Of a DNA stretch of 64,000 nucleotides, positions 4,007 to 63,177 are shown piece by piece. The stretch's first letter is position 1. Every line of letters begins with the position of its first letter. The position numbers and the translations under genes are program-made. A model generated the notes under the pieces. That model was not told where the DNA came from, did no database searches, and saw nothing but the letters and a program-made list of their open reading frames with translations. The DNA comes from Patescibacteria group bacterium (GTDB lineage Bacteria > Patescibacteriota > Microgenomatia > UBA10105 > UBA927), in the NCBI GenBank assembly GCA_038062895.1, contig JBBTWJ010000005.1:3715-67714 (forward strand). Reading direction: 5' to 3'.

Positions 4007-4073
4007 ATGTTGTGAACAGTAATATCAAATATTAGCATATAACTACTTCCCCAACCTCATTTTTTCAGTAAAT

Positions 4074-4120
4074 ACTTGTACGTTATACGTTGCGACCGCA
4101 ACTTGCAACATACATGTCTC
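4074..4120. repeat. 38-bp near-perfect palindrome, copy 1 (upstream of hypothetical gene 3248..4006)
   Basis: cgttatacgttgcgaccgcaacttgcaacatacatg, with inverted arms TGTATGTTGCAAGT/ACTTGCAACATACA around a GCGACCGC core. Confidence 0.8.
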
Positions 4121-4136
4121 GATAAAAAAATCTTCT

Positions 4137-4952: not shown

Positions 4953-4979
4953 ACAGTCAAAAAAGTCACTCCCCGCTCG

Positions 4980-5030
4980 CTTATATGTATGTTATAAGTT
5001 GCGACCGCGTCTTGCAACATACAGGTTTTT
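4980..5030. repeat. 38-bp palindrome, copy 3 (promoter region of PaaX-like gene)
   Basis: tatgtatgttataagttgcgaccgcgtcttgcaacatacag. Confidence 0.8.
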
Positions 5031-5120
5031 CAATGAAAACAAAGGGAGTTTCACAAATCAGGGAGAAAGATTGACTGTGTTTCAGTTATTCAAGTCGTAA
5101 ATAACTCTATCTAATAACTC

Positions 5121-43504: not shown

Positions 43505-43555
43505 TTTCTTAAGGTACTTCCTTGCTTCTGCAAGGAAGTACCTTGTAAAACCCTG

Positions 43556-43978
43556 TGGAGACGGAGAGGAATGACCTCTCGTCCAAGAACTTGTTCTCAA
43601 CACATCTACAGGCGTAGTCAATCAATAGTTGTCATTCCTTCCGTAACCGATTGACAGGAAAGAAGAAATCAAGACGAATTGGGCTTGACCATCCTTGGAA
43701 CGTCATACCAGGGCGGCTGCATCCCGACTGTGTTTTCACCTCTTGATAGTCACCGGGCAAACAACTCAAGAGATGGCTGTATTAGGCCGCTAACGGTAAA
43801 GCCGCGTACCTACCAGCGAACCTTCGAGCAGAAAGCGCTTGCTCTGCAGCAGCAACTTGTGCCTCAAGTTCATCTAAAGCTTTATCAGCATTTAGGTTTT
43901 TTAAGCTTGTTTTACGACCACGCTCAAGGTCGGCCTGCAGTGTAAAAGAGCAAATTCCTGTCGAATCAATACGTCCCC
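43556..43978 (-). ncRNA. ssrA: tmRNA (ssrA)
   Basis: The 5' end (minus strand) GGGGACGUAUUGAUUCGACAGGAAUUUGC resembles E. coli GGGGCUGAUUCUGGAUUCGACGGGAUUUGCG. The 3' end GGACGAGAGGUCAUUCCUCUCCGUCUCCA has a T-arm plus an acceptor strand pairing with the 5' GGGGACG. An internal tag ORF ends ...AALPLAA-UAA. Located next to smpB. Confidence 0.8.
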
Positions 43979-44061
43979 ATTTTAATAAACGAATCGAATT
44001 TCAATAAATAAATACTTCTCATTCGTTTATTAGGTTATTCTATTATTTCCTTATTCGTTTA

Positions 44062-44505
44062 TTACTTCACTTTCCCCCGGAACTCGGTTTCCAGTTCTCT
44101 CTTTTGATCTTCCCGCTTCTTGATTTCGCGCTTTTCGTACTGCTTTTTTCCGCGCGCCAAGCCTACTTCGAGCTTCACCAGGGAGCCTTTAGTATACCAA
44201 AAGAGTGGCACGAGGGTCAAATTGGCGCTATCGAGCTTACTCTTGAGACTAATAATCTCTTTTTTGTGGATAAGGAGCTTGCGGGTCCGGGCCGGATCGT
44301 ATCCTTCCGGACGCGCATACATATACGGAAAAATCTGAGCACCAACCAGGAATAGTTCTGACCCGATCACTTTGACGTAAGACCCATCCAATTTTGCGTT
44401 TCCGTTACGCAGTGACTTGACCTCGCTCCCCACGAGGTGTATCCCCGCTTCAAAGCGGTCCAGTATTTCGTAATCAAACGTGGCTTTATGGTTGACGATT
44501 TTCAT
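44062..44505 (-). CDS. smpB: SsrA-binding protein SmpB
   Basis: HKATFDYEILDRFEAGIHLVGSEVKSLR...LLIHKKEI. Confidence 0.95.
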   Translation of the reverse strand: MKIVNHKATFDYEILDRFEAGIHLVGSEVKSLRNGNAKLDGSYVKVIGSELFLVGAQIFPYMYARPEGYDPARTRKLLIHKKEIISLKSKLDSANLTLVPLFWYTKGSLVKLEVGLARGKKQYEKREIKKREDQKRELETEFRGKVK

Positions 44506-47176: not shown

Positions 47177-48982
47177 CTACTTTCGCTCTACATTAAACAA
47201 TGGTCCGACAATTTGAATGTTGGCCGGAGCGCGAAGGTTAAAAAAGTCTTTAAACTCGCTTCCGTCAAACGTAGAGGTCCCGGCATTCCCACTCACGCTT
47301 ACCTGTGTCACCCGCCCTCCTCCCCAGTCGACCCCGCTTGCGCGAATTTCAGAAACGGAGGTAAACGGAGTAACCCCACGGGAAGAAAGTTCCTGACGAA
47401 CTTTTTCGCGGCTCCACGAATCGGTGCCGGCAGGATTAGGTTTATCCGGCTGATAGAGGTGCTCCTTCGTGCCTCCGTCTTGACGCGCGAGAAGGATGAC
47501 ATTGACGATGTCAGCCACTTCTTCTTCTTTGAGCCATGCGGATTTGGCATACTCACCACGAAACCCCTGGGCGGCATAAAAACACGGCGAATCACGGTCG
47601 TACCCTTTGGACAACAAATCGTCAACGTTCCCCACATCCCCTGTTGTATCCCGAAGTCTTTTCGTCCAAGGCCTATGTGCGCTTCCCCACACATCATCGT
47701 TTCTAAATGTATATCCGCCAGCTGTAGACGCATACCACCCGGTGACCACTTGCCCGTCGCGCGTCATGACCTCTCCTTCGGTCTCCCGCACTGCTTTTTC
47801 CCAATCGCCTCCCTTGTTGCCGCCTTTATAAACCTGACAGGCTTGAGTCGTACAAATTTCTTTGGCGCCGTTGCCGGTATACGAGAGAGCATAGGAGCGA
47901 GCCGAGACAACTTGCGCTTTGAGCGCCGCCATGGGCCAGTCGCCGGGCATCTCATAAATACCAAGCATATACTCATCCAAAGCCATTTCGCCATAGCCCT
48001 GTACTTTAATCCGCATATTTTTATCCTTTTTCTCAAAACTAATACCGTCAAAGTATGCACGCAAAATATCCTGATAGGACTGACCTGCTTTTGCCCGGCC
48101 ATACGCTCCATACTGGCTCAATCCCACGCGGTGTGGGATGCCGAAGGTAAAAAACGCCCACGCCGGACGGAAACCGGGATCAAGCTTCCGGTCATCCGTA
48201 CAATACAGTGGTCCGGCCCCGAGACTGGTCGGCAAGCCCAAGCCTGAAAGCTTTTGCGCGAGAAAGGATTGTTGCTTAACCGTAAGACTCCCGATAATGC
48301 TCGTAAGCTTCCCCTGATACGCGCTTGCCTCGCCCACGAGCTTCCTCACAGATACAGCTCGCTTATCGGTTTCTTCTTTCAGATAGGAAAGCGAGGCTGC
48401 CTCCACTTCCAGTGTTTTTTTCCTATTTTCTAAATCTTTGACAGAGATGGCTGTCTGGGTTATGGCTTTTTTGTCTTCGTCCAGTGCCGCCATCTGATAA
48501 GCAAGGGACCGGAGGACCACCCCAATATTACTGCTCCCTAAAAACGTCACGAGTGGGTTATTGCTCTGTACGCGGATATAGAGCTGTCGGGCGCGCCGGG
48601 ATGCAAGCTCCAAAAGGCCTCCTATTTCTTTTTCTCCGGCGGCAATAGCTGCGACTTTCTTTGCTAAATCCGCTTCAAGCAGTTTAATCCTGCTTTGAAA
48701 TGCCGCGATATCCGACTCCATCTTACGAAGAGCGTCCACATGAGGTTTTTTGGCTGTCTCCATCTGATTCCAGGCTTCCTGACATTTGTCTATTTTAGCC
48801 TTGCACTCGCCGGGATTTCCACAGGTAGGATCGCACGATTGCGCAAGCACAATCGAATTATCCAATAATCCAATTATCCAATAAACCAATAATCCAATAA
48901 TCAAACCCTTCAAAACGGTTTTCATTTGTTGATGTATTCTACCATGCCCTGATCTTTCCTTTTCTTTCTCCCTTTGGTACAC
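47177..48982 (-). CDS. SpoIID/LytB-domain protein with N-terminal coiled coil
   Basis: C-terminal half has AALKAQVVSARSYAL...CTTQACQVYKG...TGWYASTAGGYT (SpoIID/LytB). N-terminal TM and coiled coil. The start may be the Met at 48925. Confidence 0.8.
   Translation of the reverse strand: MYQREKEKERSGHGRIHQQMKTVLKGLIIGLLVYWIIGLLDNSIVLAQSCDPTCGNPGECKAKIDKCQEAWNQMETAKKPHVDALRKMESDIAAFQSRIKLLEADLAKKVAAIAAGEKEIGGLLELASRRARQLYIRVQSNNPLVTFLGSSNIGVVLRSLAYQMAALDEDKKAITQTAISVKDLENRKKTLEVEAASLSYLKEETDKRAVSVRKLVGEASAYQGKLTSIIGSLTVKQQSFLAQKLSGLGLPTSLGAGPLYCTDDRKLDPGFRPAWAFFTFGIPHRVGLSQYGAYGRAKAGQSYQDILRAYFDGISFEKKDKNMRIKVQGYGEMALDEYMLGIYEMPGDWPMAALKAQVVSARSYALSYTGNGAKEICTTQACQVYKGGNKGGDWEKAVRETEGEVMTRDGQVVTGWYASTAGGYTFRNDDVWGSAHRPWTKRLRDTTGDVGNVDDLLSKGYDRDSPCFYAAQGFRGEYAKSAWLKEEEVADIVNVILLARQDGGTKEHLYQPDKPNPAGTDSWSREKVRQELSSRGVTPFTSVSEIRASGVDWGGGRVTQVSVSGNAGTSTFDGSEFKDFFNLRAPANIQIVGPLFNVERK
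48836..48905. repeat. 8-bp tandem repeat (~6 units, [at]atccaat) within the signal/TM-coding region of the SpoIID-like gene
   Basis: ttatccaataatccaattatccaataaaccaataatccaataatcaaac, encoding GLIIGLLVYWIIGLLDN. Confidence 0.7.
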
Positions 48983-49789: not shown

Positions 49790-50503
49790 TCATTTTCCAA
49801 ACCGTCGTTTTCGTTTTTGAAACTCTTCAATCGCCTCATCCAGTTTTTCCGGTGTAAATTCCGGCATAAACCACGTCGGAAAATACAGCTCGCTATACTC
49901 CGACTGCCACGGGAGAAATCCACTTAACCGCTGTTCTCCGCCGGTGCGGATGATAAGCTCGGGATCAGGAATACCATGCGTGTCTAAATACTGATGAAAA
50001 TCTTGTTCGGTCAACTTTAAACTTTTAACTTTAAACTTTAAACTTTCGCGCCATCTGTTGATGGCGCGTAGTATCTCATCTCTCCCACCGTAGTTGAGCG
50101 CAAAGACCGCCGTGATGGTCGTATTATTTTTCGTTTGGTGAGCGACGTCACTCAAGGATTTCTGGATATCAGCCGGAAACTTAGCCAGATCACCGATTGC
50201 GCGGACGCGGACGCCTTTCTCATGAAGACGGGCCCATCGGTTCTTGATCACATGACGGAATATCGTCATGATTCCGCGCACCTCTGGCGCTGCGCGGTTC
50301 CAATTCTCTGTAGAAAATGCCCAAAACGTCATATATTTGACTCCCCGCTTTGCGGCGTGTTCGATGAGGGGCTCAAGCACATCATTGGCCACCCGCCTGT
50401 GTCCTTCGAGAATCGGAAGTCCCCGTTCCTTTGCCCACCGGCGGTTGCCATCCATGATGACGGCGATATGGGTTGGAATATTCGTTGTATTTCCCATAAT
50501 CAT
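49790..50503 (-). CDS. uppS: Isoprenyl transferase (undecaprenyl diphosphate synthase, UppS)
   Basis: HIAVIMDGNRRWA...FSTENW...ELIIRTGGEQRLSGFLPWQ. Contains an in-frame heptamer repeat. Confidence 0.9.
   Translation of the reverse strand: MIMGNTTNIPTHIAVIMDGNRRWAKERGLPILEGHRRVANDVLEPLIEHAAKRGVKYMTFWAFSTENWNRAAPEVRGIMTIFRHVIKNRWARLHEKGVRVRAIGDLAKFPADIQKSLSDVAHQTKNNTTITAVFALNYGGRDEILRAINRWRESLKFKVKSLKLTEQDFHQYLDTHGIPDPELIIRTGGEQRLSGFLPWQSEYSELYFPTWFMPEFTPEKLDEAIEEFQKRKRRFGK
50013..50047. repeat. Heptanucleotide tandem repeat (aacttt[atc] x5) inside uppS CDS
   Basis: aactttaaacttttaactttaaactttaaactttc, translated as ..ESLKFKVKSLKLTE.. Confidence 0.85.
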
Positions 50504-50560
50504 TTTTTGTGTTTCCTACTCTTAATATATTTCTACACTTCTACATAGAAGTGTAGAATA

Positions 50561-51538
50561 TTAAAATAAATGATCTTTAATAAGATGCGCTCCGCGGGAG
50601 GGTTTGTTGACAATGACATCACGAATTTCGTCAATATCAGTTAATTTTGCTTTCAATGCGTCAACAGTGTTTGAATGACAAATAAGGTGAACATCCTGTC
50701 CGGTGTTAATAGTAAAATAGACTTCTATCCCTTCATCTCGCCACTTCTTAATAAGTCTTATAACCTGGAGCGTCCCCGGTGTCCAATAGATGAGTGGTGG
50801 TCTTGAAGTGAGCATCACCGCGTGCATCTCAAGAGCCTCTGCCTCAATAAGTTCTCCAAGGAGAGAAAAACGTTTTTCTGCCAACAGTTTTTTTGCCTGT
50901 ATTAATTTTTTTTTCATCCCTGCCAGACGCACCGGAAAAAAGGGGCTTGATGCAACGCGCGCCATTCCTTGAGTCGTGGGTACGGATTTTTTTCCTTCAT
51001 TAACGACTACCACGACATCAACGATATCCCACCAATCCGGCGGATAAAGGGAAACGCCGTAGGATGTATCACTCGTGTTGCCGTCGATCCACTCCACAAA
51101 CCCATCCGGAATAGATCTGCACGCAGAGCCGGAGCCCTGACGCGCGAGTATCGACAATTCTTTTTCATCAAGTTCTAACCCGGCTGCAGCAACTGCGGCA
51201 ACTGTTAGCGCCGCAAATCCAGAAGCAGAAGAGGATAATCCCGTACCAGAAGGAAAATTATTGACGGTGACGACTTTGGCGTAATCGTCCATACGCGCAA
51301 CCTTGCGAATCCGATCTAAATGCGTAATCGCTCTACTTCCATCAATTGCTTCCTGGATACCGTTAATCTCTATAACGTCCTCCTTATGCATTGGGCTGAA
51401 TTCCACGGTCGTTGTTGTCATCAAACCAGAAAGGTTCATTGATAAACTACCGTTTTCCGGCAAGCGTAATGCGTCATTTTTCTTTCCCCAATACTTGATA
51501 AATGCAATATTTGAGGGAGCAACAGCTGTAGCTTTCAT
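50561..51538 (-). CDS. mvaD: Diphosphomevalonate decarboxylase
   Basis: PSNIAFIKYWGK...GTGLSSSASGFAAL...SGSACRS. Start at the Met MKATAV, with a 4-nt ATGA overlap with the upstream gene. Confidence 0.9.
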   Translation of the reverse strand: MKATAVAPSNIAFIKYWGKKNDALRLPENGSLSMNLSGLMTTTTVEFSPMHKEDVIEINGIQEAIDGSRAITHLDRIRKVARMDDYAKVVTVNNFPSGTGLSSSASGFAALTVAAVAAAGLELDEKELSILARQGSGSACRSIPDGFVEWIDGNTSDTSYGVSLYPPDWWDIVDVVVVVNEGKKSVPTTQGMARVASSPFFPVRLAGMKKKLIQAKKLLAEKRFSLLGELIEAEALEMHAVMLTSRPPLIYWTPGTLQVIRLIKKWRDEGIEVYFTINTGQDVHLICHSNTVDALKAKLTDIDEIRDVIVNKPSRGAHLIKDHLF

Positions 51539-52983
51539 GATAAAATTCCTGCTTTTTTGAGCGAAACTTCTGCACATCTCGTAAGCACAATTTCCTTCGT
51601 TGCCACTTTAAATGGTATCTCCCGGGGAGAAAAAAATTCCACACGATCTACTTCCTCATGATTTATCCGAAACGGGCCATTGGATACCCCTCTATATAGC
51701 GCTGCCATTTCCGACTCCTGGTTATCTTGTACGACAAACCTGGAAAGCGGGGTAACTGGCATATCGACTCCCAGTTCTTCCTGAAGCTCGCGGTGAAGCG
51801 TCTCTTCGTACTCCTGACCTTTCCGCACATGGCCCGCGCAGGATATACCCCAAAGTCCCGCGCCCGTATCTTTAGAACTGCTCCTTTTTTGGAGAAGCAC
51901 ATTCCCTTTTTTATCAAAAATAACGGCTCCTACCGTGCGATGGATAAGTGACTTGTCATGATGGCAGTCATAGCGGCTGCGAAACCCAAGCACTCTGTCA
52001 TCTTTATCGACGACGATAAATTCTTCTTTCTGGTCATCGGTTGTCTCGATGCGGACACCTTGAGCGTTTGGGTGGACATCAATCGCTTCACCACCCGCAT
52101 CCGCTATCGCTTTTTGTATGGCTTCTCTCTTATCGCTCGGCCCAAGGGCGATCATACAATCTCCGCCCCCTGCACCGGAGAGCTTGGCGCCCCAAGCTCC
52201 TGCCTTTTTTGCCGCACTAATCATCGCTTCTAACTTTTCGCTGCTCACTCCCAAATCCCGCAGGTACTCATGATTAAAATCCATGAGTCTCCCCACCCGT
52301 TCCCAATCCCCTTCCAACATCCGCATTTTCGCTTCCTCAACCAATTTGGTTATCGCCTGAAAAATCCGCTCCACTTTCTCCGGATTCTTTTCCTTCTTTT
52401 CGGCCACTTGTTTTATAAGCATCGTCGTATCCGCTTTCACTCCCGTGTATCCAACAATGAGTGGCATTTCTGATACAGTTTGATCGTTTGATTCCCGGTA
52501 TTGAGCGTGGATTTCTTCAATAACTTTGCCGCCGGCAATGAAATAGAGGGTTCCCCCATACACGGCCGCTGCCACATCAAATCCGCTCCCCATCCCCTGC
52601 ACGGCTAACACCGTTTTATATGAAAGGTCAAAAAGCTCGCGCGACGTCACTTCTTTTTTGAAAAGCAAGGCAAGCGCCTTTACTACCCCCACCGTTACCG
52701 AGGCAGATGATCCGAAACCATATTTGCCCGAAAAGTTACTTTGTGTTTTGATCCGGAACCCAACCGATGGAATACCCCACCCTTTTTGTGCCTGCCGGAC
52801 CGCTTCATCCACAAAGCGGGTATCACCCGCTTGGGGCGCATCTACCACGACCTTACTTTCCTCAATTTTTTCCACTCCAACCGTAAGCCGCTCATCAATC
52901 GCGGTAACCAAAGAAGGATAGCCGTACACGACGGCGTGTTCACCCATTACCATTAATTTCCCTGGCGCGGAAATTAAAACCAT
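51535..52983 (-). CDS. Fusion protein: GHMP kinase (mevalonate/phosphomevalonate kinase-like) + isopentenyl-diphosphate isomerase type 1 (Nudix)
   Basis: N-terminus APGKLMVMGEHAVVYG..GFGSSAS (GHMP). The C-terminal ~160 aa has HRTVGAVIFDKKGNVLLQKRSSSKDTGAGLWGISCAGH...ELQEELGV, the IDI-1 pattern. Confidence 0.85.
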   Translation of the reverse strand: MVLISAPGKLMVMGEHAVVYGYPSLVTAIDERLTVGVEKIEESKVVVDAPQAGDTRFVDEAVRQAQKGWGIPSVGFRIKTQSNFSGKYGFGSSASVTVGVVKALALLFKKEVTSRELFDLSYKTVLAVQGMGSGFDVAAAVYGGTLYFIAGGKVIEEIHAQYRESNDQTVSEMPLIVGYTGVKADTTMLIKQVAEKKEKNPEKVERIFQAITKLVEEAKMRMLEGDWERVGRLMDFNHEYLRDLGVSSEKLEAMISAAKKAGAWGAKLSGAGGGDCMIALGPSDKREAIQKAIADAGGEAIDVHPNAQGVRIETTDDQKEEFIVVDKDDRVLGFRSRYDCHHDKSLIHRTVGAVIFDKKGNVLLQKRSSSKDTGAGLWGISCAGHVRKGQEYEETLHRELQEELGVDMPVTPLSRFVVQDNQESEMAALYRGVSNGPFRINHEEVDRVEFFSPREIPFKVATKEIVLTRCAEVSLKKAGILS

Positions 52984-53059
52984 AAATTGTTATTGGTTAG
53001 TTAGTTAATTAGTTACTTAGCTATAATTTATCTAACTAACAAAGTAACGAAATAACGAA
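52984..53059. repeat. Intergenic inverted-repeat spacer (module gttagttag/gttacttag/taactaac)
   Basis: ttggttagttagttaattagttacttagctataatttatctaactaacaaagtaacgaaataacgaactaac. Confidence 0.7.
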
Positions 53060-54031
53060 CTAACTTTTCTTCTCCAACCGTATCCCTTCTTCTCCTAATC
53101 TGATCGGTTGAATGGAAAATCCATATGGCTTGCTTATGGCAGATATCTTATCCGGGTCTTGGGTATAGCATAATAAAAATCCCACACCCTCCGCTTTTCC
53201 GCCGCCACCGAGGATCTTCGCTGCACCTCCGGCCTTTTCAATTTTCCTGATGAGCGGAATGACTTTCCTGCTTACCACTTCCATTCCCTCCAAGCTTCGC
53301 TGTCCGGCGGTCATTGCATCCATCAATTCTTTCTCATCCCCCTCCTTGATCGCCACCGCGATATTTCGAGTTTGTATTTCATTCTCATCAAATAATCTAT
53401 TCATTCTTGACGCCTGACGCCTGACGCCTGACGCTACCAAAGAAATCATCTCCCCTGTCGTCTCCTTCGGTTTCCCGGTATTGATGAGAAAAAAATGATT
53501 GAGACTTTCGGGTATCTTGAATGGCAACTGCCAGATGCTTTTGAGAAATTCAAGTTCCTTCCGAAACCAAATAAGTCCGCCCATGGTCACCGTCGTATTA
53601 TCTCCGCCGGAAGGATTCCCGTGCATTTTTTTCTCGACTTCATAGGCAATCTGGTTAATCGCAGCCGGATTCCAAACTTTTTTAAGATAATAGGTTAGGG
53701 CTCCGACGACTCCAACGGCTACTGCGGCCGATGAGCCCAAATGATAACCGGCAGGAATATCGGAAACAACCGTAATCTTCATCGGTGGAAGATTTGCAAG
53801 TTTATACTCCCGCTTGACCACCTCAACTACATGACGGATATAGTCGGACGGCTCACTGGAGTCGATAAGTATTTTTTCTCTGGATCCCCGCGTTCGCGGG
53901 GATGACAAAGAAAGCGACTCGACAGTCACACGCAAACGGAGGTTGATGGCGGCAAGAAGCGCGGGCTTACCATAAACAACCGCGTGTTCGCCCATTAAAT
54001 GCACTTTACCGGGAACGCTTACTGTAACCAT
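53060..54031 (-). CDS. mvk: Mevalonate kinase (GHMP kinase)
   Basis: VPGKVHLMGEHAVVYGKPALLAAI...GYHLGSSAAVAVG...KILGGGG. Contains a translated palindromic element and a heptamer repeat. Confidence 0.85.
   Translation of the reverse strand: MVTVSVPGKVHLMGEHAVVYGKPALLAAINLRLRVTVESLSLSSPRTRGSREKILIDSSEPSDYIRHVVEVVKREYKLANLPPMKITVVSDIPAGYHLGSSAAVAVGVVGALTYYLKKVWNPAAINQIAYEVEKKMHGNPSGGDNTTVTMGGLIWFRKELEFLKSIWQLPFKIPESLNHFFLINTGKPKETTGEMISLVASGVRRQASRMNRLFDENEIQTRNIAVAIKEGDEKELMDAMTAGQRSLEGMEVVSRKVIPLIRKIEKAGGAAKILGGGGKAEGVGFLLCYTQDPDKISAISKPYGFSIQPIRLGEEGIRLEKKS
53399..53428. repeat. Heptanucleotide tandem repeat ([ct]tgacgc x4) inside mvk CDS
   Basis: ttgacgcctgacgcctgacgcctgacgc, translated as ASGVRRQASR. 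Confidence 0.8.
53878..53908. repeat. Palindromic element family A' inserted in-frame in mvk (translated LSSPRTRGSRE)
   Basis: ctctggatccccgcgttcgcggggatgacaa, with arms GGATCCCCGCG/CGCGGGGATC. Confidence 0.8.
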
Positions 54032-54116
54032 AAATAGTTAGTTAGCAACGCTAGTTACTTCGTTACTTAGAAAAAATTTCTACCAAGTAACTAAATAACG
54101 CGCGTTGCTCGTGTTG
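54032..54116. repeat. Intergenic inverted-repeat spacer; left arm is the reverse complement of a segment in 54432..54508
   Basis: agttagcaacgctagttacttcgttacttag ... ctaagtaac...gttgctaac. Confidence 0.7.
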
Positions 54117-54431
54117 CTAACACGGTTTCACTTTTATCCCATACGGAATCACGCCCTCATTGTTTGGCTTAATGGTGCGGCGGACAACAGTAATAACCTT
54201 CATTCCCATAAGCTTTTCCTTCCCAGCCTGTCCGCCGGCTGGCGGATCTACAAGTTGTGCGGTTATTCTTTCTCCCCCACTAAGCTCGACAAGGACCACG
54301 GGATACGGAGCCTGATCGGAAAAATCAGCCGGAGGAACACGCACCATGGTCCACGAGATTATTTTCCCGATTTTCCCGAGCATTTTACCAACGTTCTTTT
54401 GATTTCTCCAAAGCTTGACCGGACTAAGCAT
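54117..54431 (-). CDS. DUF35 OB-fold/Zn-ribbon protein (thiolase/HMG-CoA synthase scaffold, archaeal type)
   Basis: 104 aa (...WTMVRVPPADFSDQAPYPVVLVELSGGERITAQLVD...) sitting between the thiolase and kinase genes. Confidence 0.7.
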   Translation of the reverse strand: MLSPVKLWRNQKNVGKMLGKIGKIISWTMVRVPPADFSDQAPYPVVLVELSGGERITAQLVDPPAGGQAGKEKLMGMKVITVVRRTIKPNNEGVIPYGIKVKPC

Positions 54432-54508
54432 AATTGTTACTTGGTTAGTTGGTTACTTAGTTATTAGTAAAAAATTTTTCTAAGTAACGAAGTAACTAGC
54501 GTTGCTAA
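54432..54508. repeat. Intergenic inverted-repeat spacer
   Basis: ttacttggttagttggttacttagttattag...ctaagtaacgaagtaactagcgttgctaactaac. Confidence 0.7.
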
Positions 54509-55663
54509 CTAACTTTTAAGTATATGAGCCACCGCGGTCGCTCCGCTTCCTCCGACGTTATGGGCAAGTCCCACGCGCGCGCCTTTCACTTGTCTGGCTC
54601 CTGCCACCCCCCGAAGTTGCGTCACCAATTCAACAACCTGCTTGACGCCCGTCGCGCCAATCGGATGACCACAGCCTTTCAGTCCCCCAGACGGATTGAC
54701 GACTAATTTTTTCGCTTTCCCCAGCGTCACTTCTCCCCGTGATATCGCTCGAGCTGCCATTCCCTTGCGATAAAATCCTATATCTTCCAGAGCTAAAATT
54801 TCTGCAATCGTAAAACAATCATGCACCTCGGCGATATCAATATCGCGAGGCCCGACGCCGGCAATCGCATAAGCGCGACGCGCAGCTTCTTGAGAAGCCG
54901 CAAGCTCGGTCAAGCTCTCTCTTTGGGCAAGTCCCAATGTGTCTGTTGCCACTGCGCTTGCGACAATTTCAATCTCCTTTTCCCTTTTTCCGTTTACCTT
55001 TTTCCTTGAAAGTATGAGTGCTGCTGCTCCGTCTGAAATCGGTGAGCAATCTAATAACTTCAGGGGGTCGGCGACAGCGTGGCTTCTTAGAACCTGCTCG
55101 ATGGTGAGAAGACTTCGAAATTGTGCGTTAGGGTTTAAACTCGCATGAAAATGATTTTTTACGGCAACTGCCGCCAGATCTTCTTGGGTCGTCCCATACT
55201 CCTGCATATGAATACGGGCAAGAATGGCGTAGAGCCCCGGAAACGTACAACCAGATGAACGCTCTTGAGCAGTCCCCGCGCCCATGAGCGCTGTCGCCAC
55301 ATCTTCTGGCTTGTGATCCGTCATCTTTTCGACCCCAAGTACGGCAACCGTCTCATACTGACCGGAGGCGATGGCGTTAAATGCGTTGTGAATAGCCAGG
55401 CCTCCCGACGCGCACGCGCCTTCAACCTTAAAAGCAGCAGCGTGAGTAAATCCCAGTTCCTCTGCAAAAAATGCCCCCAAATGCTCCTGTCCACCCAACA
55501 TGCCGGAGAGCATATTGCCTACGAATAACGCCTGAATGTCCCGCGGCTTCATAGCAGCATCTTTCAGCGCGCCGTCCATGGCCTCATGGGCGAGCGTCCT
55601 GGGAGAGACGCTCCAAAGCTCACCGAATTTAGTTGTAGAAGCACCGATGATAGATACATTCAT
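54509..55663 (-). CDS. Acetyl-CoA C-acetyltransferase (archaeal-type thiolase)
   Basis: MNVSIIGASTTKFGEL...ACASGGLAI.., a thiolase fold without the bacterial PhaA-type N-terminus. Confidence 0.9.
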   Translation of the reverse strand: MNVSIIGASTTKFGELWSVSPRTLAHEAMDGALKDAAMKPRDIQALFVGNMLSGMLGGQEHLGAFFAEELGFTHAAAFKVEGACASGGLAIHNAFNAIASGQYETVAVLGVEKMTDHKPEDVATALMGAGTAQERSSGCTFPGLYAILARIHMQEYGTTQEDLAAVAVKNHFHASLNPNAQFRSLLTIEQVLRSHAVADPLKLLDCSPISDGAAALILSRKKVNGKREKEIEIVASAVATDTLGLAQRESLTELAASQEAARRAYAIAGVGPRDIDIAEVHDCFTIAEILALEDIGFYRKGMAARAISRGEVTLGKAKKLVVNPSGGLKGCGHPIGATGVKQVVELVTQLRGVAGARQVKGARVGLAHNVGGSGATAVAHILKS

Positions 55664-55758
55664 AGTTGCTTGGTTAGTTGGTTACTTGGTTACTTAGAAA
55701 GAACTAAGTTGCTAAGTAACAGGTGTTGCTAACTAACAATCTAGCGAATTACCATTCG
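55664..55758. repeat. Intergenic inverted-repeat spacer
   Basis: ttgcttggttagttggttacttggttacttag...ctaagttgctaagtaacaggtgttgctaactaac, followed by a second palindrome ctagcgaattaccattcgctag. Confidence 0.7.
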
Positions 55759-56862
55759 CTAGATTTTGTGTGTCTGTTTCAAATATTGCACGTAATCAAT
55801 GTACGTTTTTTTCGCTATTTGCTGCTGCACTAAACTTTGACTTTTGACTTTTGACTTTTGACTTTTGACGAGCGCTTCTGTCGTCTCCCACACAAACCCG
55901 TCGCTGCCGGCTCCCGATCCGTAGGACACCATAAAAATCTTCTCTCCGGGTTTGGCGATATCCAATACCGCGGCAAGCCCCATCATGGTAGAAGCTGAAT
56001 AGGGATTTCCAATGGTGTCCACGACAAGTGAGGGCAGTATCTGATCAGGCGTAAACCCTAAGCGCTTCGCTGCGTCCCGGGGAAATCTCCCGTTGGGCAT
56101 ATGAAAAACACAATAGTCAATATCAGAAGGTTTACACTGAACCTTTTCAAAAAGGCGACGTGCGGCCCCTATAACATGCGCAAAATATGCCGGCTCTCCG
56201 GTGAACCTCCCTGCATGAGATGGATAGGCCACACCATCACGTCGCCAAAAGTCCGGCGTGTCCGAAGAATAGGAAGTGTAGGCAAGAAGTTTTGCAACGA
56301 TAGGTTTAGTTGTTCCTTGGGGATCAATTTTCTTGCGGCCGCTTTTGTTTTGATCCTCATCTCCTTTTCCCATTAAAAACGCGGCTCCGGCGGCGGCGGA
56401 CGTGTATTCCAACACGTCGTGGGGTTTGCTTTGGGCCGTATCAGCACCCACGGCCATACCATAGCGCATATGACCGGATCCCACGAGCCCTGCGATTGCC
56501 TGCATCCCCGCGGTCCCCGCTTTACAGGCAAACTCAAAATCTGCCGCCAGATAATTATTTCCTACGCCAAGAAGTTCTCCGACAATCGTGGACGTTGGAT
56601 TAACCGCATACGGATGACTTTCTGATCCCACAAATAGAGCTTCTATAGACTGGGGACTTAGCCCCTCTACTCCGCTCAAGGCGCTTCGGGCGGCTTCAAG
56701 GGCTATCGTCACTGCGTCCTCGTCTGGAGCCTGTACGGATTTTTCCGTAACGAGAAGCGATGAAGTGACGTCCTGTCCGTCCTTTTTCCACGCAGCAGCG
56801 ATATCGCTTAGACGGATGCGGTACTGCGGAATATAGGTGCCGTATGAAACAATTCCTACCAT
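55759..56862 (-). CDS. mvaS: Hydroxymethylglutaryl-CoA synthase (archaeal type)
   Basis: MVGIVSYGTYIPQYRI...AGTAGMQA (catalytic Cys region). A heptamer repeat lies near the C-terminus. Confidence 0.9.
   Translation of the reverse strand: MVGIVSYGTYIPQYRIRLSDIAAAWKKDGQDVTSSLLVTEKSVQAPDEDAVTIALEAARSALSGVEGLSPQSIEALFVGSESHPYAVNPTSTIVGELLGVGNNYLAADFEFACKAGTAGMQAIAGLVGSGHMRYGMAVGADTAQSKPHDVLEYTSAAAGAAFLMGKGDEDQNKSGRKKIDPQGTTKPIVAKLLAYTSYSSDTPDFWRRDGVAYPSHAGRFTGEPAYFAHVIGAARRLFEKVQCKPSDIDYCVFHMPNGRFPRDAAKRLGFTPDQILPSLVVDTIGNPYSASTMMGLAAVLDIAKPGEKIFMVSYGSGAGSDGFVWETTEALVKSQKSKVKSQSLVQQQIAKKTYIDYVQYLKQTHKI
55834..55868. repeat. Heptanucleotide tandem repeat ([ct]tttgac x5) inside HMG-CoA synthase CDS
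   Basis: ctttgacttttgacttttgacttttgacttttgac, translated as KSQKSKVKSQS. Confidence 0.85.
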
Positions 56863-56983
56863 ATATTTAAATCCAAAATCCTAATTTCTAAATTCTAAAC
56901 AATATCAAAATTCAAATATCCAATGCTCTAAACTGTTTTGTATTTTGAATTTTGGTCATTTGAATTTATTTTGAATTTAGGAT

Positions 56984-58147
56984 TTAGTGCTTAGAGCTTC
57001 CGCGCGCAAGACGTTGATGCGCGCGGGCTAAGGTTCCCTCCGACAACGACGCAAGAAGTGAAATTTCACCAGCGAGTACGGCGGCTGCAATAATCTCCGC
57101 AAGCCGTTGAGCGTTTTTCCCATTATCCCCACCGGCAACGCCAAGAATGTTCAAGGCTTCTTTTTGTGTCCCAAGCCCTGTCCCGCCACCAACCGTCCCG
57201 ACCATAAGATCCGGGAGACATACATTGATATATACATCGTGACCATCAACTACTTCCATCGTCGTTATCCCCACGCTACACTCTCCCACGTGTCCGAGGT
57301 CTTGCCCTGTCGCCAAAAACATCGCCGCGATAACGTTGGCGTATTGGGCGTTAAATCCCATGGATCCGCTTATCGCGCTTCCGATCATACATTTAGCGAG
57401 CCATACTTCATAAACCTTTTGTGCCGTTGTTTTAAGAACATTTTTAAGAACACTCGCAGGAATAGTCACTTCTGCCCACACCTTGATCCCGCGATTTTCT
57501 ATGAAGTTAAGCCACGCGGATTTTTTGTCTATGTCAAAATTCCCGGCAAGTGAAAGGCATTTCACCCCGGTTTCCTCTTCGATATATGAGGCAAGAGCGT
57601 CGCTTGCTATTGTTGCCATGTTCATGCCCATAGCATCCTCGGTGTCAAACGTAAATCGCACAAACCGATATCTCCCAACCCCACGGGTCAACAACTTCTT
57701 TAACGTTATATGACGTGATGTTTTGGCGGCTACCTCCTGTAGATCATTCAAGTGCTCATTCAAAAATTTATATAAACGGTCGCTCTGTGCAAGATCTTTC
57801 ACTTTAAATACCGGACCCCGTGTCGCTCCCACCCGATGACTATCAACCGTCGACCCACCGCTTTCGGTGATCGCTTTACACCCCCGGCTCACGGAAGCGA
57901 CGAGAGCGCCTTCGGTCGTGGCGAGGGGAATATACCCACTGAAAACTTTAAACTTTAAACTTTTAACTTTGAGGGGGCCGGCGATACCTAGTGGGACTTG
58001 TGCCGCTCCGACCATGTTTTCGCAGTTTTTCGTTGATGCAACGGACTGGTCCAGAGTAAAGCTGCCGATGTTGATTAAATCAACCTTCAACTGTTTCTCC
58101 AGGGCGCTTCTGCGGTCCGTAACTGTTTTGTAATCACGAAGATTCAT
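56984..58147 (-). CDS. mvaA: HMG-CoA reductase
   Basis: ENMVGAAQVPLGIAGPL...ATTEGALVAS...DAMGMNM...GTVGGGT. Start at the Met MNLRDYK (ATGA overlap with the upstream Yip1 gene). Confidence 0.9.
   Translation of the reverse strand: MNLRDYKTVTDRRSALEKQLKVDLINIGSFTLDQSVASTKNCENMVGAAQVPLGIAGPLKVKSLKFKVFSGYIPLATTEGALVASVSRGCKAITESGGSTVDSHRVGATRGPVFKVKDLAQSDRLYKFLNEHLNDLQEVAAKTSRHITLKKLLTRGVGRYRFVRFTFDTEDAMGMNMATIASDALASYIEEETGVKCLSLAGNFDIDKKSAWLNFIENRGIKVWAEVTIPASVLKNVLKTTAQKVYEVWLAKCMIGSAISGSMGFNAQYANVIAAMFLATGQDLGHVGECSVGITTMEVVDGHDVYINVCLPDLMVGTVGGGTGLGTQKEALNILGVAGGDNGKNAQRLAEIIAAAVLAGEISLLASLSEGTLARAHQRLARGSSKH
57943..57970. repeat. Heptanucleotide tandem repeat (aacttt[atg] x4) inside HMG-CoA reductase CDS
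   Basis: aactttaaactttaaacttttaactttg, translated as LKVKSLKFKV between GPL and ATTEG. Confidence 0.85.
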
Positions 58148-59048: not shown

Positions 59049-59126
59049 GATTTTGACGTCATTCTGGAAGCCGAAGGCTGATAGAATCTCCAGGGGATCC
59101 TATCGCTTCGCTCCAGGATGACATTT

Positions 59127-59697: not shown

Positions 59698-60648
59698 TCA
59701 TGCTTGGCGGTTGAGCGCAAAACTTGCAAAGTCAGTAAGAAGCGCTCCCATGCCGACAGACGCATGAATCGCTTGGGTCGCCTGAGCCGTCTGCTTTCCA
59801 AGCTTCTTGGCCTGTGTGCGGAAAGCGTCCTCACCAACTTCACCATCAAGGAAATCATCGCGCAGTTGATATGCCTCTCCCACCGCCAGGCCGTACGGTA
59901 CAAACGATTCGAGCGTTTTCTCATCCGACCCGGCGATGCTCGCTCCGATCTGAAGAGGCCGGACGACGCTGTACCAAGCAGTTTTATAACGGTTAATCGT
60001 TGCCCTGTCGGCGCTGGGCAATCCAGCGGAGGCCAACACATCCAGGCTCTGACCCAAAATCACCTCTTGTTTCATTTTCTGATAATTTACCCACACGCTC
60101 GACCAATTCCGGGAATCCTTTGGATTCCCGGAATTAACGGCCCGGTTCATCAGTTCATCCGCCCACGCCAATGCGAGGTCGCCGGCGAGGATAGCCATGC
60201 TCTCGCCGAAACGCGAACTCCCCATCCGATTCCGGGAATCCAAAGGATTCCCGGAATCTAGCGCAACCTGCTTAAACTTTTCATGAACAGTGGGACTGCC
60301 GCGGCGCATCGCATCTTCGTCAATAATATCGTCATGGATGAGAGCAAACGACTGAAATAGTTCAATTCCCATCATGGCAGAGAGCACGTTGTCATCCCCG
60401 ACCCGATCGGGGATCCAGGTATTGCGCTGGATTCCCGCGTGCGCGGGAATGACAGACTGGTGCCCCAGCCATACCAGAAACGCCCGGGTCCGCTTGCCGC
60501 CGCGGGAGGTGAGATCGGCTATTTGGTCAACGAGTTGTATGGTCTGCGGATGGATGTTTTTCGCTTCACTGTGTTTGGTCGTAAAAAAGTGTTGAAGTTC
60601 ATGATCGACGTTCTTCTTGACATCATGAAGGGCTGTAGTGAGATCCAT
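59698..60648 (-). CDS. Polyprenyl diphosphate synthase (FPP/GGPP synthase family) carrying three translated palindromic insertions
   Basis: FARM motif LIHDDIIDEDAMRRG and SARM motif GEAYQLRDDFLD. Start at the Met MDLTTALHD; the longer ORF extension is encoded by an intergenic repeat copy. Confidence 0.9.
   Translation of the reverse strand: MDLTTALHDVKKNVDHELQHFFTTKHSEAKNIHPQTIQLVDQIADLTSRGGKRTRAFLVWLGHQSVIPAHAGIQRNTWIPDRVGDDNVLSAMMGIELFQSFALIHDDIIDEDAMRRGSPTVHEKFKQVALDSGNPLDSRNRMGSSRFGESMAILAGDLALAWADELMNRAVNSGNPKDSRNWSSVWVNYQKMKQEVILGQSLDVLASAGLPSADRATINRYKTAWYSVVRPLQIGASIAGSDEKTLESFVPYGLAVGEAYQLRDDFLDGEVGEDAFRTQAKKLGKQTAQATQAIHASVGMGALLTDFASFALNRQA
60105..60142. repeat. Palindromic element family B (14-bp arms) inside polyprenyl synthase CDS, translated NSGNPKDSRNW
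   Basis: aattccgggaatcc-ttt-ggattcccggaatt. Confidence 0.85.
60229..60262. repeat. Palindromic element family B, second copy, inside polyprenyl synthase CDS, translated DSGNPLDSRNR
   Basis: gattccgggaatcc-aaa-ggattcccggaatc. Confidence 0.85.
60427..60454. repeat. Palindromic element family A inside polyprenyl synthase CDS, translated SVIPAHAGIQ
   Basis: ctggattcccgcgtgcgcgggaatgaca. Confidence 0.85.
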
Positions 60649-60724: not shown

Positions 60725-60752
60725 CTGGATTCCCGCCGTCGCGGGAATGACA
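60725..60752. repeat. Palindromic element family A, intergenic copy
   Basis: ctggattcccgccgtcgcgggaatgaca. Confidence 0.8.
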
Positions 60753-60804
60753 ATTCTTCGCATATTGTTGACAGTCGCCTTCAGCTTTCCGTACACTTAT
60801 ACTC

Positions 60805-61494: not shown

Positions 61495-61884
61495 ATGAAG
61501 GTGTTTGCTTCAGAACCACTTGGAACAATCGGGGGCGAGGGACTGGGACCCTGGGGCTTAATCGGAAAAAACCTTAGCGCTGATAACGGTGTTGCCGGAT
61601 TAAGAGCAGTTACCGCAACAATTTCCGGGGTCATCGGCGTCATGACGGTGGCTGCCGGCATCTGGTTTATCTTCCAAGTCCTCATCGGAGGCTTTTACTG
61701 GATCACATCAGCAGGCGACAAAACGAAACTCAATGAAGCACGCGACCGCATACAAAATGCGGCAATCGGACTCGTCGTCGTCGTCGCAGGATGGTCGATC
61801 CTCGCGCTCGCCGGACAATTCTTGGGGTACGATATTGTCATCAGCAATCCCGGAGAAGTAATAAAACAATTAAAAATACAATAA
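61495..61884 (+). CDS. Pilin-like small membrane protein, paralog 5
   Basis: IGGFYWITSAGDKTKLNEARDRIQNAAIGLVVVVAGWSILAL. Confidence 0.7.
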   Translation: MKVFASEPLGTIGGEGLGPWGLIGKNLSADNGVAGLRAVTATISGVIGVMTVAAGIWFIFQVLIGGFYWITSAGDKTKLNEARDRIQNAAIGLVVVVAGWSILALAGQFLGYDIVISNPGEVIKQLKIQ

Positions 61885-61893
61885 CAATTTACT

Positions 61894-61921
61894 CTGGATT
61901 CCCGCCTGCGCGGGAATGACA
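61894..61921. repeat. Palindromic element family A, copy overlapping the start region of the next pilin gene
   Basis: ctggattcccgcctgcgcgggaatgaca. Confidence 0.8.
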
Positions 61922-62787: not shown

Positions 62788-63177
62788 ATGACTCGCAAAG
62801 CGTTTCCCTCATTCTATTATTCTCTTATTCCATTATTCGTTTATTTCTTTATTAGCTTGTCGCCCGTCAATGCCGCCCCGTGGGGCGGGTGTGTCATTGA
62901 GGAGGCGGCAACCCTCCAGTGTCTCGTCCCCATGTTTGAGCGCATCGTGCAGGGAATTCTTGCACTCTCCGGCGTTGCGCTCTTTGTGATGCTGGTCATC
63001 GGCGGATACAATTTTCTCCTCTCGGGAGGCGACCAAAAAAAGCTCGAGACGGCCCGTAGCACAATCACCACGGCGATCTTGGGGCTCGTGATCATGGTGA
63101 TTGCCTACCTCATCATCAAAACCATCGCAAACTTTACCGGTGTCCAGTCCGTCACTCAATTTAATATTCCGCAGTAG
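62788..63177 (+). CDS. Pilin-like small membrane protein, paralog 8
   Basis: IGGYNFLLSGGDQKKLETARSTITTAILGLVIMVIAYLII, with a Cys pair in the N-terminal region. Confidence 0.7.
   Translation: MTRKAFPSFYYSLIPLFVYFFISLSPVNAAPWGGCVIEEAATLQCLVPMFERIVQGILALSGVALFVMLVIGGYNFLLSGGDQKKLETARSTITTAILGLVIMVIAYLIIKTIANFTGVQSVTQFNIPQ

Follow-up and report, generated by a model that had tools for sequence, protein, structure and literature searches.

Octamer-built hairpin spacers in the mevalonate operon of a Gottesmanbacteria-related bacterium: candidate copies of a small palindromic insertion

The mevalonate operon analyzed here lies in a stretch of 64,000 nt from a Patescibacteria group bacterium (contig JBBTWJ010000005.1; the whole stretch is called the window below), and it comprises eight co-directional genes on the minus strand, as deduced from open reading frames (ORFs) and Pfam domains. 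Four of its intergenic spacers are interpreted, at roughly even odds (probability about 0.5), as copies of one small, non-autonomous palindromic insertion resembling miniature inverted-repeat transposable elements (MITEs) or REPINs, placed in gene junctions that were ancestrally gapless. The source of the window was a 224,654-bp groundwater metagenome contig from the Hainich aquifer (ENA ERZ1292633), and a scan with its thiolase found the nearest relatives among metagenome-assembled genomes (MAGs) labelled Candidatus Gottesmanbacteria or Patescibacteria.

When the spacers were aligned on the coding strand, those at 52984-53059, 54032-54116, 54432-54508 and 55664-55758 were found to be homologous imperfect palindromes of ~75-90 nt, all sharing one orientation. 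Each arm of ~33 nt is composed of four degenerate tandem octamers (GTTAGTTN GTTAGTTN GTTACTTN GTTACTTAG), and each copy reads as a 5' arm GTTAGTTnGTTAGTTnGTTACTTnGTTACTTAG, an A/T loop of ~10 nt, a 3' arm starting with CTAAGTAACTAAGTAACCAACTAAC, and a further 4-13 nt up to the ATG. The words GTTACTTAG, GTTAGTTAG and GTTGCTAAC occurred six, five and five times in the window, against a chance expectation of 0.1-0.3 each, and these counts were reached by none of 100 shuffles. With the exception of one GTTGCTAAC, the occurrences in the 64 kb were confined to the four spacers, and an 18-mer search allowing three mismatches gave the same confinement. The predicted RNA folds of the copies, named A to D in order of position, had energies of -12.2, -30.6, -12.3 and -19.0 kcal/mol, with z-scores of -2.0 to -5.4. 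The shared modules and hairpin-forming spacers described in the original prediction, an earlier note made from the letters alone, were corroborated: the words are over-represented, the spacers align, and the folding that it had proposed gave predicted structures for the four copies.

Copy A (52984-53059; all four copies are on the minus strand) occupies the junction between GHMP kinase 1 and a GHMP kinase fused to NUDIX; its 5' arm is abutted by the upstream TAG stop, and the ATG lies 5 nt beyond the stem. Copy B (54032-54116), between DUF35 and GHMP kinase 1, is the best-paired copy and accounts for both the lowest energy and the z-score of -5.4. The arms of copy C (54432-54508), between thiolase and DUF35, pair poorly with each other (-12.3 kcal/mol). 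Copy D (55664-55737) lies between HMG-CoA synthase (HMGCS) and thiolase, next to a separate and perfect 12-bp mini-hairpin, AATCTAGCGAAT-GGTA-ATTCGCTAGATT (55738-55765, minus strand), which includes the HMGCS stop at 55759-55761. The element ends in GTTAG...CTAAC, with AAAA before and WATTT after it; it is 75-95 nt in size and has stops in all six frames. It thus shows the inverted-repeat ends, the small size and the lack of coding capacity of a MITE. The spacer positions of the original prediction were exact (76, 85, 77, 95 and 121 nt), but its claim that every spacer of the operon carries the modules was valid for four of the seven junctions; at the other three lie a palindrome of another kind, a small hairpin that is unrelated, and a 43-nt overlap of the genes.

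For the comparison with related genomes, GTDB species representatives were scanned with the thiolase, which yielded 80 loci, ~60 of them of the Gottesmanbacteria type with the same gene order (L-numbers are labels of the related loci and metagenome contigs compared). Junctions from HMG-CoA reductase (HMGR) through the second kinase were counted in 60 related genomes, 269 junctions in all. Most of them (180, or 67%) are no longer than 10 nt, many being 4-nt overlaps of the ATGA type, and 64 measure 40-160 nt. No long spacer at all was present in 31 of the 60 genomes, and all five junctions were filled only in the window genome and in L009. Long spacers occupied 62% of the junctions in the closest relatives (thiolase identity of at least 74%), compared with 16-19% in the more distant ones. 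The filled and empty sites that characterize a MITE are therefore found among the relatives. Compared with gapless relatives, the upstream proteins differ at their ends only in the last codon and the stop; the thiolase, for instance, mostly ends in HILKK-stop and in the window in HILKS-stop (AAA AGT TAG). Given these unchanged protein ends, the long spacers are considered derived insertions into ancestrally coupled junctions. Moreover, sequence inspection revealed that thiolase, GHMP kinase 1 and the rpsC gene of L093, which are unrelated upstream genes, all end in ...AAAAGTTAG, so that the last codon and the stop are apparently supplied by the element.

Nearly all long spacers of the relatives are hairpins with arms of tandem 7-9-nt words, and these words are genome-specific: GGAATAAT in L008, ATCTACAAAT in L009, GAATTAC-type words in L027, TTAGAG-type words in L046, GTATTAG in L048, GTCAAAA and AGTTCA in L053, and GATCAA in L061. 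A single-hairpin fold was obtained for 53 of 66 long spacers; the tails left unpaired had median lengths of 2 nt on the stop side and 6 nt on the ATG side. The comparison of spacers between relatives, which had been suggested with the original prediction, thus revealed patchy, lineage-specific insertions that are mostly absent or unrelated elsewhere. The outcome named there as unfavorable was only half observed: most relatives do lack the spacer or hold an unrelated one, but the modules do occur in other genomes.

Words are shared within genomes rather than between orthologous junctions: 30% of the within-genome spacer pairs had 9-mers in common, compared with 3% of the same-junction pairs across genomes, and in 34 cross-genome pairs a family was shared at different junctions. 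The octamer family of the window was also found in L006, at the junction of GHMP kinase 1 with the GHMP kinase-NUDIX gene (orthologous to copy A), and in L011 and L029, at the thiolase|DUF35 junction (that of copy C). A 62-nt AT-rich element of L017 showed 94-97% identity to two other sites in L024, at different junctions, the thiolases of L017 and L024 each being 73-74% identical to that of the window. Between two MAGs from the same aquifer (L007, 3595-3795, and L020, ~2015-2215), an island of ~200 nt, which takes in the HMGR end together with the entire HMGR|HMGCS palindrome, showed 97-99% identity within surrounding genes of 65-73%, which suggests a recent exchange of the element with its flanks. 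Short islands of this kind, located within longer weak alignments, are missed by all-against-all blastn at a threshold of at least 93% identity.

A metagenome pattern scan was performed with CKAAGTAACNAAGTAACYARC, and what it found holds among the matches listed. Most matches listed from the metagenome and viral scans were microsatellite-like (CTAA/CTAAGTAA)n arrays, which are presumably eukaryotic and uninformative; others were prokaryote-like contigs with the same hairpin architecture in other gene contexts. An 82-nt rpsM/rpsK spacer (L160, 6618-6699) consists of a TAG stop, GTTAGTTAGTTACTTGGTTACTTCG, a loop, CCAAGTAAC...CTAAC and the ATG, and a nadB/nadC spacer (L090) has the same word order and stop-to-start geometry. 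Hairpin spacers with this word order and geometry were also observed beside a glycosyltransferase gene (L107), rpiB (L198) and dnaX (L175), and single arms in the rplT/pheS gap (L123) and after rplV (L093); in L175, an arm of ~30 nt lies in frame within the zinc-finger loop of dnaX. None of these outside hairpins, among the matches listed, adjoins mevalonate genes. The alignment of ten family members gave the consensus AAAAGTTAGTTnGTTAGTTnGTTACTTnGTTACTTAG-loop-CTAAGTAACTAAGTAACCAACTAACnAAnTAACTATTTATG. A search for further occurrences of the modules, suggested at the outset for the genome, located related hairpins in other genomes and operons when it was made beyond the window.

According to the insertion model, paralogous copies in the same orientation would have been inserted into junctions that previously overlapped or abutted, and the element would belong to a large set of word-built palindrome families in Gottesmanbacteria and other Microgenomates, with fast turnover and spread among junctions and genomes. 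The spread could be due to transposition by an enzyme encoded elsewhere, or to recombination together with template switching. MITE-like insertion was one of three explanations offered in the original prediction, and it fits best, given the lineage-specific insertions and the recurrence of the families at other junctions and in other operons; no target-site duplication could be defined, and no transposase was annotated in the window, although one may be encoded elsewhere in the genome.

Several observations weigh against the insertion model. No direct duplication was detected around the copies when their ends were inspected in the alignment. All four copies lie within 2.8 kb and none was found in the other ~55 kb of the window, which is unusual for a transposing element. 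Pfam annotation of the genes called in the window yielded no transposase, REP-associated transposase (RAYT), integrase or reverse transcriptase. The words themselves are simple and contain many stop codons, and direct arrays of similar words were seen upstream of start codons in viral contigs, so that the likeness to distant hairpins could be partly convergent. Arrays of 7-8-nt words are 3 to 6 times as frequent in the operon as in its flanks, which random insertion does not explain, and the heptamer arrays that lie at conserved positions inside the genes are not accounted for by a MITE.

In the polycistronic mRNA, each copy is predicted to fold into a single hairpin that would loop out nearly all of the insertion and leave the stop and the next start ~10 nt apart, and this would explain how such insertions survive in translationally coupled junctions. 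With the stop at the stem base and the ATG 4-13 nt beyond it, a ribosome that terminates there would open the base of the stem and make the following start accessible; translational coupling would therefore be enforced by the hairpin rather than broken, and downstream initiation would depend on upstream termination. Shine-Dalgarno-like motifs were counted before 9 of 80 crude gene calls in the whole window (11%), compared with 7.7% in random windows, a count that is approximate because the starts are those of the longest ORFs. The organism appears to rely little on Shine-Dalgarno pairing, and where few such motifs and ancestrally overlapping or abutting junctions come together, a palindromic insertion should be of a tolerated type. 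With 25-35 bp, the stems would moreover be candidate targets of RNase III or barriers to exonucleases. From these modelled folds, we infer that the hairpins may have a role at the RNA level.

Tandem arrays also occur inside the genes. All six period-7 arrays of at least 3.9 copies that Tandem Repeats Finder detected in the window fall in the 8.5-kb operon (chance ~5e-6), and five of the six are located inside genes, all on the minus strand: AAAGTTT x4 in a variable beta-hairpin of HMGR (57943-57970), where it encodes KVKSLKFKV; GTCAAAA x4.9, 100% perfect, near the C-terminus of HMGCS (55836-55869); an AAGGAAA-like array of x4.7 with 76% matches in a variable thiolase segment (54975-55007); GCGTCAG x3.9, perfect, in GHMP kinase 1 (53408-53434), where the segment is as long as in array-free relatives; and AAAGTTT x4.9 in undecaprenyl-diphosphate synthase (UPPS; 50013-50046), the same word as in HMGR. 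As a class, coding arrays have ~4.3-4.9 copies (30-34 nt) and are often 100% perfect, with 76-100% matches across the window. In the 60 genomes, arrays with periods of 5-11 nt reached 0.44/kb in the operon against 0.145/kb in the flanks, and period-7 arrays numbered 120 in the operon and 13 in the flanks. Arrays of period 7-8 were found both in spacer arms and in coding loops, which fits long simple sequence repeats and heptamer arrays of the short tandemly repeated repetitive (STRR) type, a class defined by tandem units of 5-11 nt that exceed chance length and are mostly non-coding; the cyanobacterial STRR heptamers are comparable tandem repeats.

The same protein positions carry arrays in many relatives, with different words (HMGR ~92; HMGCS ~316-333; thiolase ~218-222; GHMP kinase 1 ~190-200; UPPS ~150-155 and ~167, in window ORF numbering), and the alignments identified these positions as poorly conserved segments. 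Since the segments in GHMP kinase 1 and HMGCS are of equal length with and without an array, the arrays replace sequence and are not simply inserted. Words were shared by 18.9% of the array pairs within a genome and by 7.2% between genomes (p=2e-9), including sharing between coding arrays and spacer arms, and the archaeal homologues of the operon genes contained 3 arrays in 204 kb. This sharing, together with the near-absence in archaea, points to a DNA-level process in this bacterial lineage, which may be slippage, template switching with conversion, or some other mechanism, and of which the hairpin spacers may be another product. An extension of this idea is tentatively put forward as a less probable reading: an active process in Gottesmanbacteria and other Microgenomates would write ~30-nt arrays of 7-8-nt words into unconstrained sequence, length-neutrally in protein loops and as inverted pairs at junctions, with words that spread within a genome and differ by lineage, so that the operon hairpins would be its product and not conventional transposons. 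A phase-variable repeat was rejected, as four other assemblies of the population were identical across the covered arrays and spacers, apart from two unrelated substitutions in one of them, and the coding arrays shown keep the frame in every relative.

It is rather unlikely that the spacers arose in place without a mobile element, with slippage producing the 7-8-nt arrays, template switching of the quasi-palindrome kind adding the inverted copy, and gene conversion homogenizing the result, the coding arrays bearing the same signature. The arms are indeed tandem arrays with periods of 7-8 nt, perfect heptamer arrays replace variable gene segments of the same length, and coding arrays and spacers share words within a genome at the rates given above; the window copies are clustered, arms have been swapped between copies B and C, and the archaeal homologues are nearly array-free. 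In the passages of PMC4679880 that cite Mrazek 2007, heptamers are reported to outnumber the other long simple repeats in the majority of prokaryotic genomes, and their abundance is attributed to polymerase slippage. However, transfer or strong convergence is needed to account for near-identical elements at different junctions of different genomes and for hairpins in unrelated operons that repeat the word order. The four other assemblies showed no length variation, which indicates that the arrays are not hypermutable on short time scales, and slippage by 7 nt within a gene shifts the frame, so that length-neutral overwriting needs an extra assumption.

The hairpins could instead be selected cis-regulatory RNAs, that is, intercistronic stems that set cistron levels through RNase III/E cleavage or protection from 3'-exonucleases, or that enforce coupling; this explanation is likewise regarded as doubtful. 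In its favor, the predicted stems reach from stop to start, the operon holds 5-6 of the ~13 hairpin-bearing gaps in the 64 kb, and the 3- to 6-fold array enrichment is a feature of the operon; with so few Shine-Dalgarno sites, structure near the AUG should matter. The mRNA hairpins formed by Neisseria Correia and Yersinia ERIC elements are cleaved and alter mRNA stability. On the other hand, 31 of the 60 relatives have no such spacer and most junctions are gapless, and orthologous junctions hold unrelated families. From the ten family members, RNAalifold recovered no more than a 10-bp consensus, whose covariation term was positive, so that there was no net covariation; the pairing register is ambiguous because the words repeat. 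The sense strand had no fold advantage in 74 spacers (means of -20.5 and -20.0 kcal/mol, p=0.29, assessed by the G-U versus A-C asymmetry), and copies A, C and D folded better as antisense; the absence of a strand bias is as expected for a palindrome at the DNA level.

Known RNA signals were searched for as well. At its gathering thresholds, Rfam 15 identified nothing in the window except tRNAs and a tmRNA, and a permissive E-value gave only chance sub-threshold matches to miRNA hairpins in the operon. Terminator-like sites numbered 12 against 11.6 expected, with none on the main stems of the word-built hairpins; inside the spacers, matches were limited to two antisense-strand features, the mini-hairpin (55738-55765) and a 7-bp stem (54109-54125). 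An intrinsic terminator or attenuator was accordingly rejected, and no excess of promoter-like sites was detected in the scan. An "all-frame stop insulator" was unconvincing, with three-frame stops in the first 35 nt of 26% of the spacers and 18% of the shuffles. Sites for an operon-specific regulator are unlikely, given that several word families without relation to each other are present together and that their words recur in other operons elsewhere. The processing or stabilizing hairpins and attenuators of the original prediction were thus left unsupported by covariation, strand preference, terminator enrichment or an Rfam family; an effect of this kind is possible as a consequence of the insertions.

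The original prediction had also pointed to an inverted repeat around DUF35 that might allow inversion or excision of the gene. Its 31-mer at 54040-54070 does recur as an exact reverse complement, but at 54480-54510 instead of ~54476-54506, and the exact repeat is longer, at 40 nt (54036-54075 and 54475-54514); a separate detection gave 54 nt at 93%. The left arm (54036-54075) corresponds to the 3' arm of copy B plus part of its loop, and the right arm (54475-54514) to the 5' arm of copy C, with the thiolase stop included. As the copies are palindromic and face the same way, the 5' arm of copy C, upstream of DUF35, is necessarily complementary to the 3' arm of copy B, downstream of it. The 3' arm of copy C resembles those of copies A and D, and the perfect 40-nt complementarity between B and C, combined with the poor self-pairing of C, indicates that the copies are mosaics with exchanged arms. 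The inverted repeat around DUF35 is therefore a by-product of two adjacent palindromic copies with swapped arms and not a recombination device.

Inversion or excision at these repeats, or an operon organized as an integron-like cassette array with attC-like hairpins, is accordingly most improbable, and the DUF35 proposal is considered largely refuted. It could draw on the exact 40-nt repeat itself, on the superficially attC-like appearance of imperfect hairpins of 57-140 nt between ORFs, and on the gene-to-gene variation of the best-matching relative, which hints at recombination. However, no integrase or recombinase was annotated on the called genes of the window, and none of the four other assemblies showed a rearrangement (three were identical where they overlapped, and one had two substitutions outside the repeats). 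Wherever DUF35 was found, it sits behind thiolase on the same strand, with the kinase genes next in line except in L043, where they lie upstream. The attC consensus is R''(RYYYAAC)...R'(GTTRRRY), and the ends GTTAG...CTAAC have the inverse of this order, GTTAGTT also failing to fit GTTRRRY; integron attC sites and cassettes were thus rejected on core order, sequence, the lack of an annotated integrase and the conserved gene order.

Equally remote is a role of the hairpins or arrays as guide RNAs or as sites bound by a trans-acting system, either a stem-loop TIGR-Tas system or an oligomeric protein reading UAG repeats. TIGR-Tas stem-loop guides are common in bacteria of the Candidate Phyla Radiation (CPR) (PMC12045711; bioRxiv 10.64898/2026.09.09.750476); stem-loop tigRNAs are variable CPR palindromes that can lie in coding sequence and undergo processing at a CUU motif of the stem base (bioRxiv 10.64898/2026.09.09.750476). 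In the window, GUUACUUAG is present in the stems, and UAG occurs at a 7-8-nt period in many 5' arms. Nevertheless, no Nop-domain (Tas) protein was annotated in the window, the stems are continuous with an A/T loop of ~10 nt and, on inspection, lack the two 8-12-nt spacers flanked by box C/D, and the coexistence of several unrelated word families in one genome argues against a single cognate binding factor. A stem-loop TIGR array was rejected on these grounds.

Among known repeat systems, the insertions resemble the Correia/NEMIS MITEs of Neisseria and the enterobacterial ERIC/IRU MITEs, which are non-coding elements of ~70-150 bp with terminal inverted repeats that lie between co-transcribed genes, vary in presence and absence, and form long mRNA hairpins. 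Correia elements, however, duplicate a defined TA target, number hundreds per genome and lack internal tandem words, compared with the four clustered copies and octamer arms described here. REP/REPIN elements, which are mobilized by RAYT transposases, likewise consist of two inverted short repeats forming an extragenic hairpin of ~100 nt, in genome-specific families that evolve within the genome, but REPs are typically GC-rich, number hundreds and flank a single-copy RAYT. The spacers have AT-rich stems, few visible copies and several coexisting families; neither the RAYT (Y1 HuH) association nor a high copy number was observed, no RAYT being annotated in the 64 kb and the copies in the window numbering four. 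Rickettsia palindromic elements (RPEs) are also small palindromes of a reduced genome, found in intergenic regions and in frame at tolerant surface positions. RPEs are true insertions of 100-150 bp, whereas the coding arrays here are tandem, non-palindromic, ~30 nt long and length-neutral in GHMP kinase and HMGCS. The RNase III sites of the phage T7 early region share the irregular hairpins between consecutive cistrons of one transcript, but they are conserved functional signals, in contrast to the predicted hairpins described here, which are absent from most relatives. The TAACTGA heptamers of Beggiatoaceae, Cyanobacteria and Bacteroidetes are intergenic repeats of unknown function (MacGregor 2015, PMC4679880). 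Like the spacers, they have 7-nt units with stops in all frames, lie directly before starts and often over the upstream stop, usually without a Shine-Dalgarno sequence, and occasionally occur at tolerant sites in ORFs (PMC4679880). They differ in having one word per clade and being direct repeats, with one indirect repeat reported (PMC4679880); the spacers are inverted pairs that form hairpins from many words, with an 8-nt unit in the window family. No published description of these CPR hairpins was found in the literature.

The genes of the operon, all on the minus strand and given in the direction of transcription, are HMGR (58243-56984; 58147 is the start according to the gene caller), HMGCS (56862-55759), thiolase (55663-54509), a DUF35/OB-fold protein (54431-54117), GHMP kinase 1 (54031-53060), the GHMP kinase fused to NUDIX (52983-51535), diphosphomevalonate decarboxylase (MDD, 51577-50561) and UPPS (50503-49790), and the gaps between them measure 121, 95, 77, 85, 76, -43 and 57 nt. 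The NUDIX domain on the second GHMP kinase (51535-52983) is possibly an isopentenyl-diphosphate isomerase-type module. The overlap of this gene with MDD (50561-51577) is 43 nt by longest ORF and 4 nt with the later MDD start of the gene caller. The nearest relative differs by gene, being L007 for HMGR, HMGCS and DUF35, L006 for thiolase, L009 for GHMP kinase 1 and L008 for UPPS, which hints at gene-by-gene recombination inside the operon.

The HMGR/HMGCS junction (56863-56983, minus strand) holds an AT-rich palindrome of 7-nt words (TAAATTC / TTTTGAA), as indicated by fold and tandem-repeat search; it had rightly been set apart from the octamer family at the outset, and its own family was also found at the same junction in L062 and at HMGCS|thiolase in L046. 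At the MDD/UPPS junction (50504-50560, minus strand) lies a 12-bp hairpin, TTCTACACTTCT-ATGT-AGAAGTGTAGAA, which is outside the word family and whose stem is identical in L009. Within GHMP kinase 1, a GC-rich palindrome, GATCCCCGCG-TT-CGCGGGGATG (53884-53906), lies in frame and encodes SSPRTRGS; the segment is missing in L006, L008 and L009, the same peptide occurs in L020, and L007 and L011 have longer FPRKRESS-type insertions at this position.

Further repeats were noted elsewhere in the window, some of them with a 10-mer census against all spacers, of which only strong clusters were used, as it is noisy below ~10 hits per cluster. A GC-rich hairpin (-31.6 kcal/mol, z -6.2) lies at 59049-59126; the sites at 60428-60454, 60726-60754 and 61855-61921 have 10-mers in common with GC-rich palindromes filling the mevalonate junctions of L018 and L050, and they appear to form a second dispersed repeat family. 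Directly upstream of a tmRNA gene on the minus strand (region 43553-43978 and 43980-44068) lies an array or hairpin of 8-nt words (ATTCGTTT / GAATAA-type), and words of it are found in the L008 operon spacers too; this family occurs again at 62811-62858. The array AATCCAAT x6.5 (48851-48902) lies in the first ~25 codons of a SpoIID-domain gene (47177-48925) and has words in common with the spacers at the HMGR|HMGCS junction in L053, L026 and L006. Finally, the intergenic regions 4007-4136 and 4953-5120 each contain a similar palindrome of ~40 nt, ...TGTATGTTGCAAG..GCGGTCGCAAC.TATAAC.TACA..., representing another local repeat family.

The genomes of CPR bacteria are considered extremely streamlined; their genes are tightly packed and frequently overlap. 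The present results suggest that even their streamlined operons are colonized by tiny palindromic repeats, as is a ribosomal-protein operon on a prokaryote-like metagenome contig, and they suggest a rule for survival, namely that an insertion folding back on itself in the transcript leaves the upstream stop beside the following start. They also caution against a regulatory reading of operon hairpins when comparative data are lacking. The repeats may act as breakpoints in assembly and binning and are potential strain markers, and as natural "insulator" modules they are candidates for trials in synthetic operons. If confirmed genome-wide, the coding heptamer arrays would represent an unusual form of protein-loop evolution, driven by the dynamics of DNA repeats.

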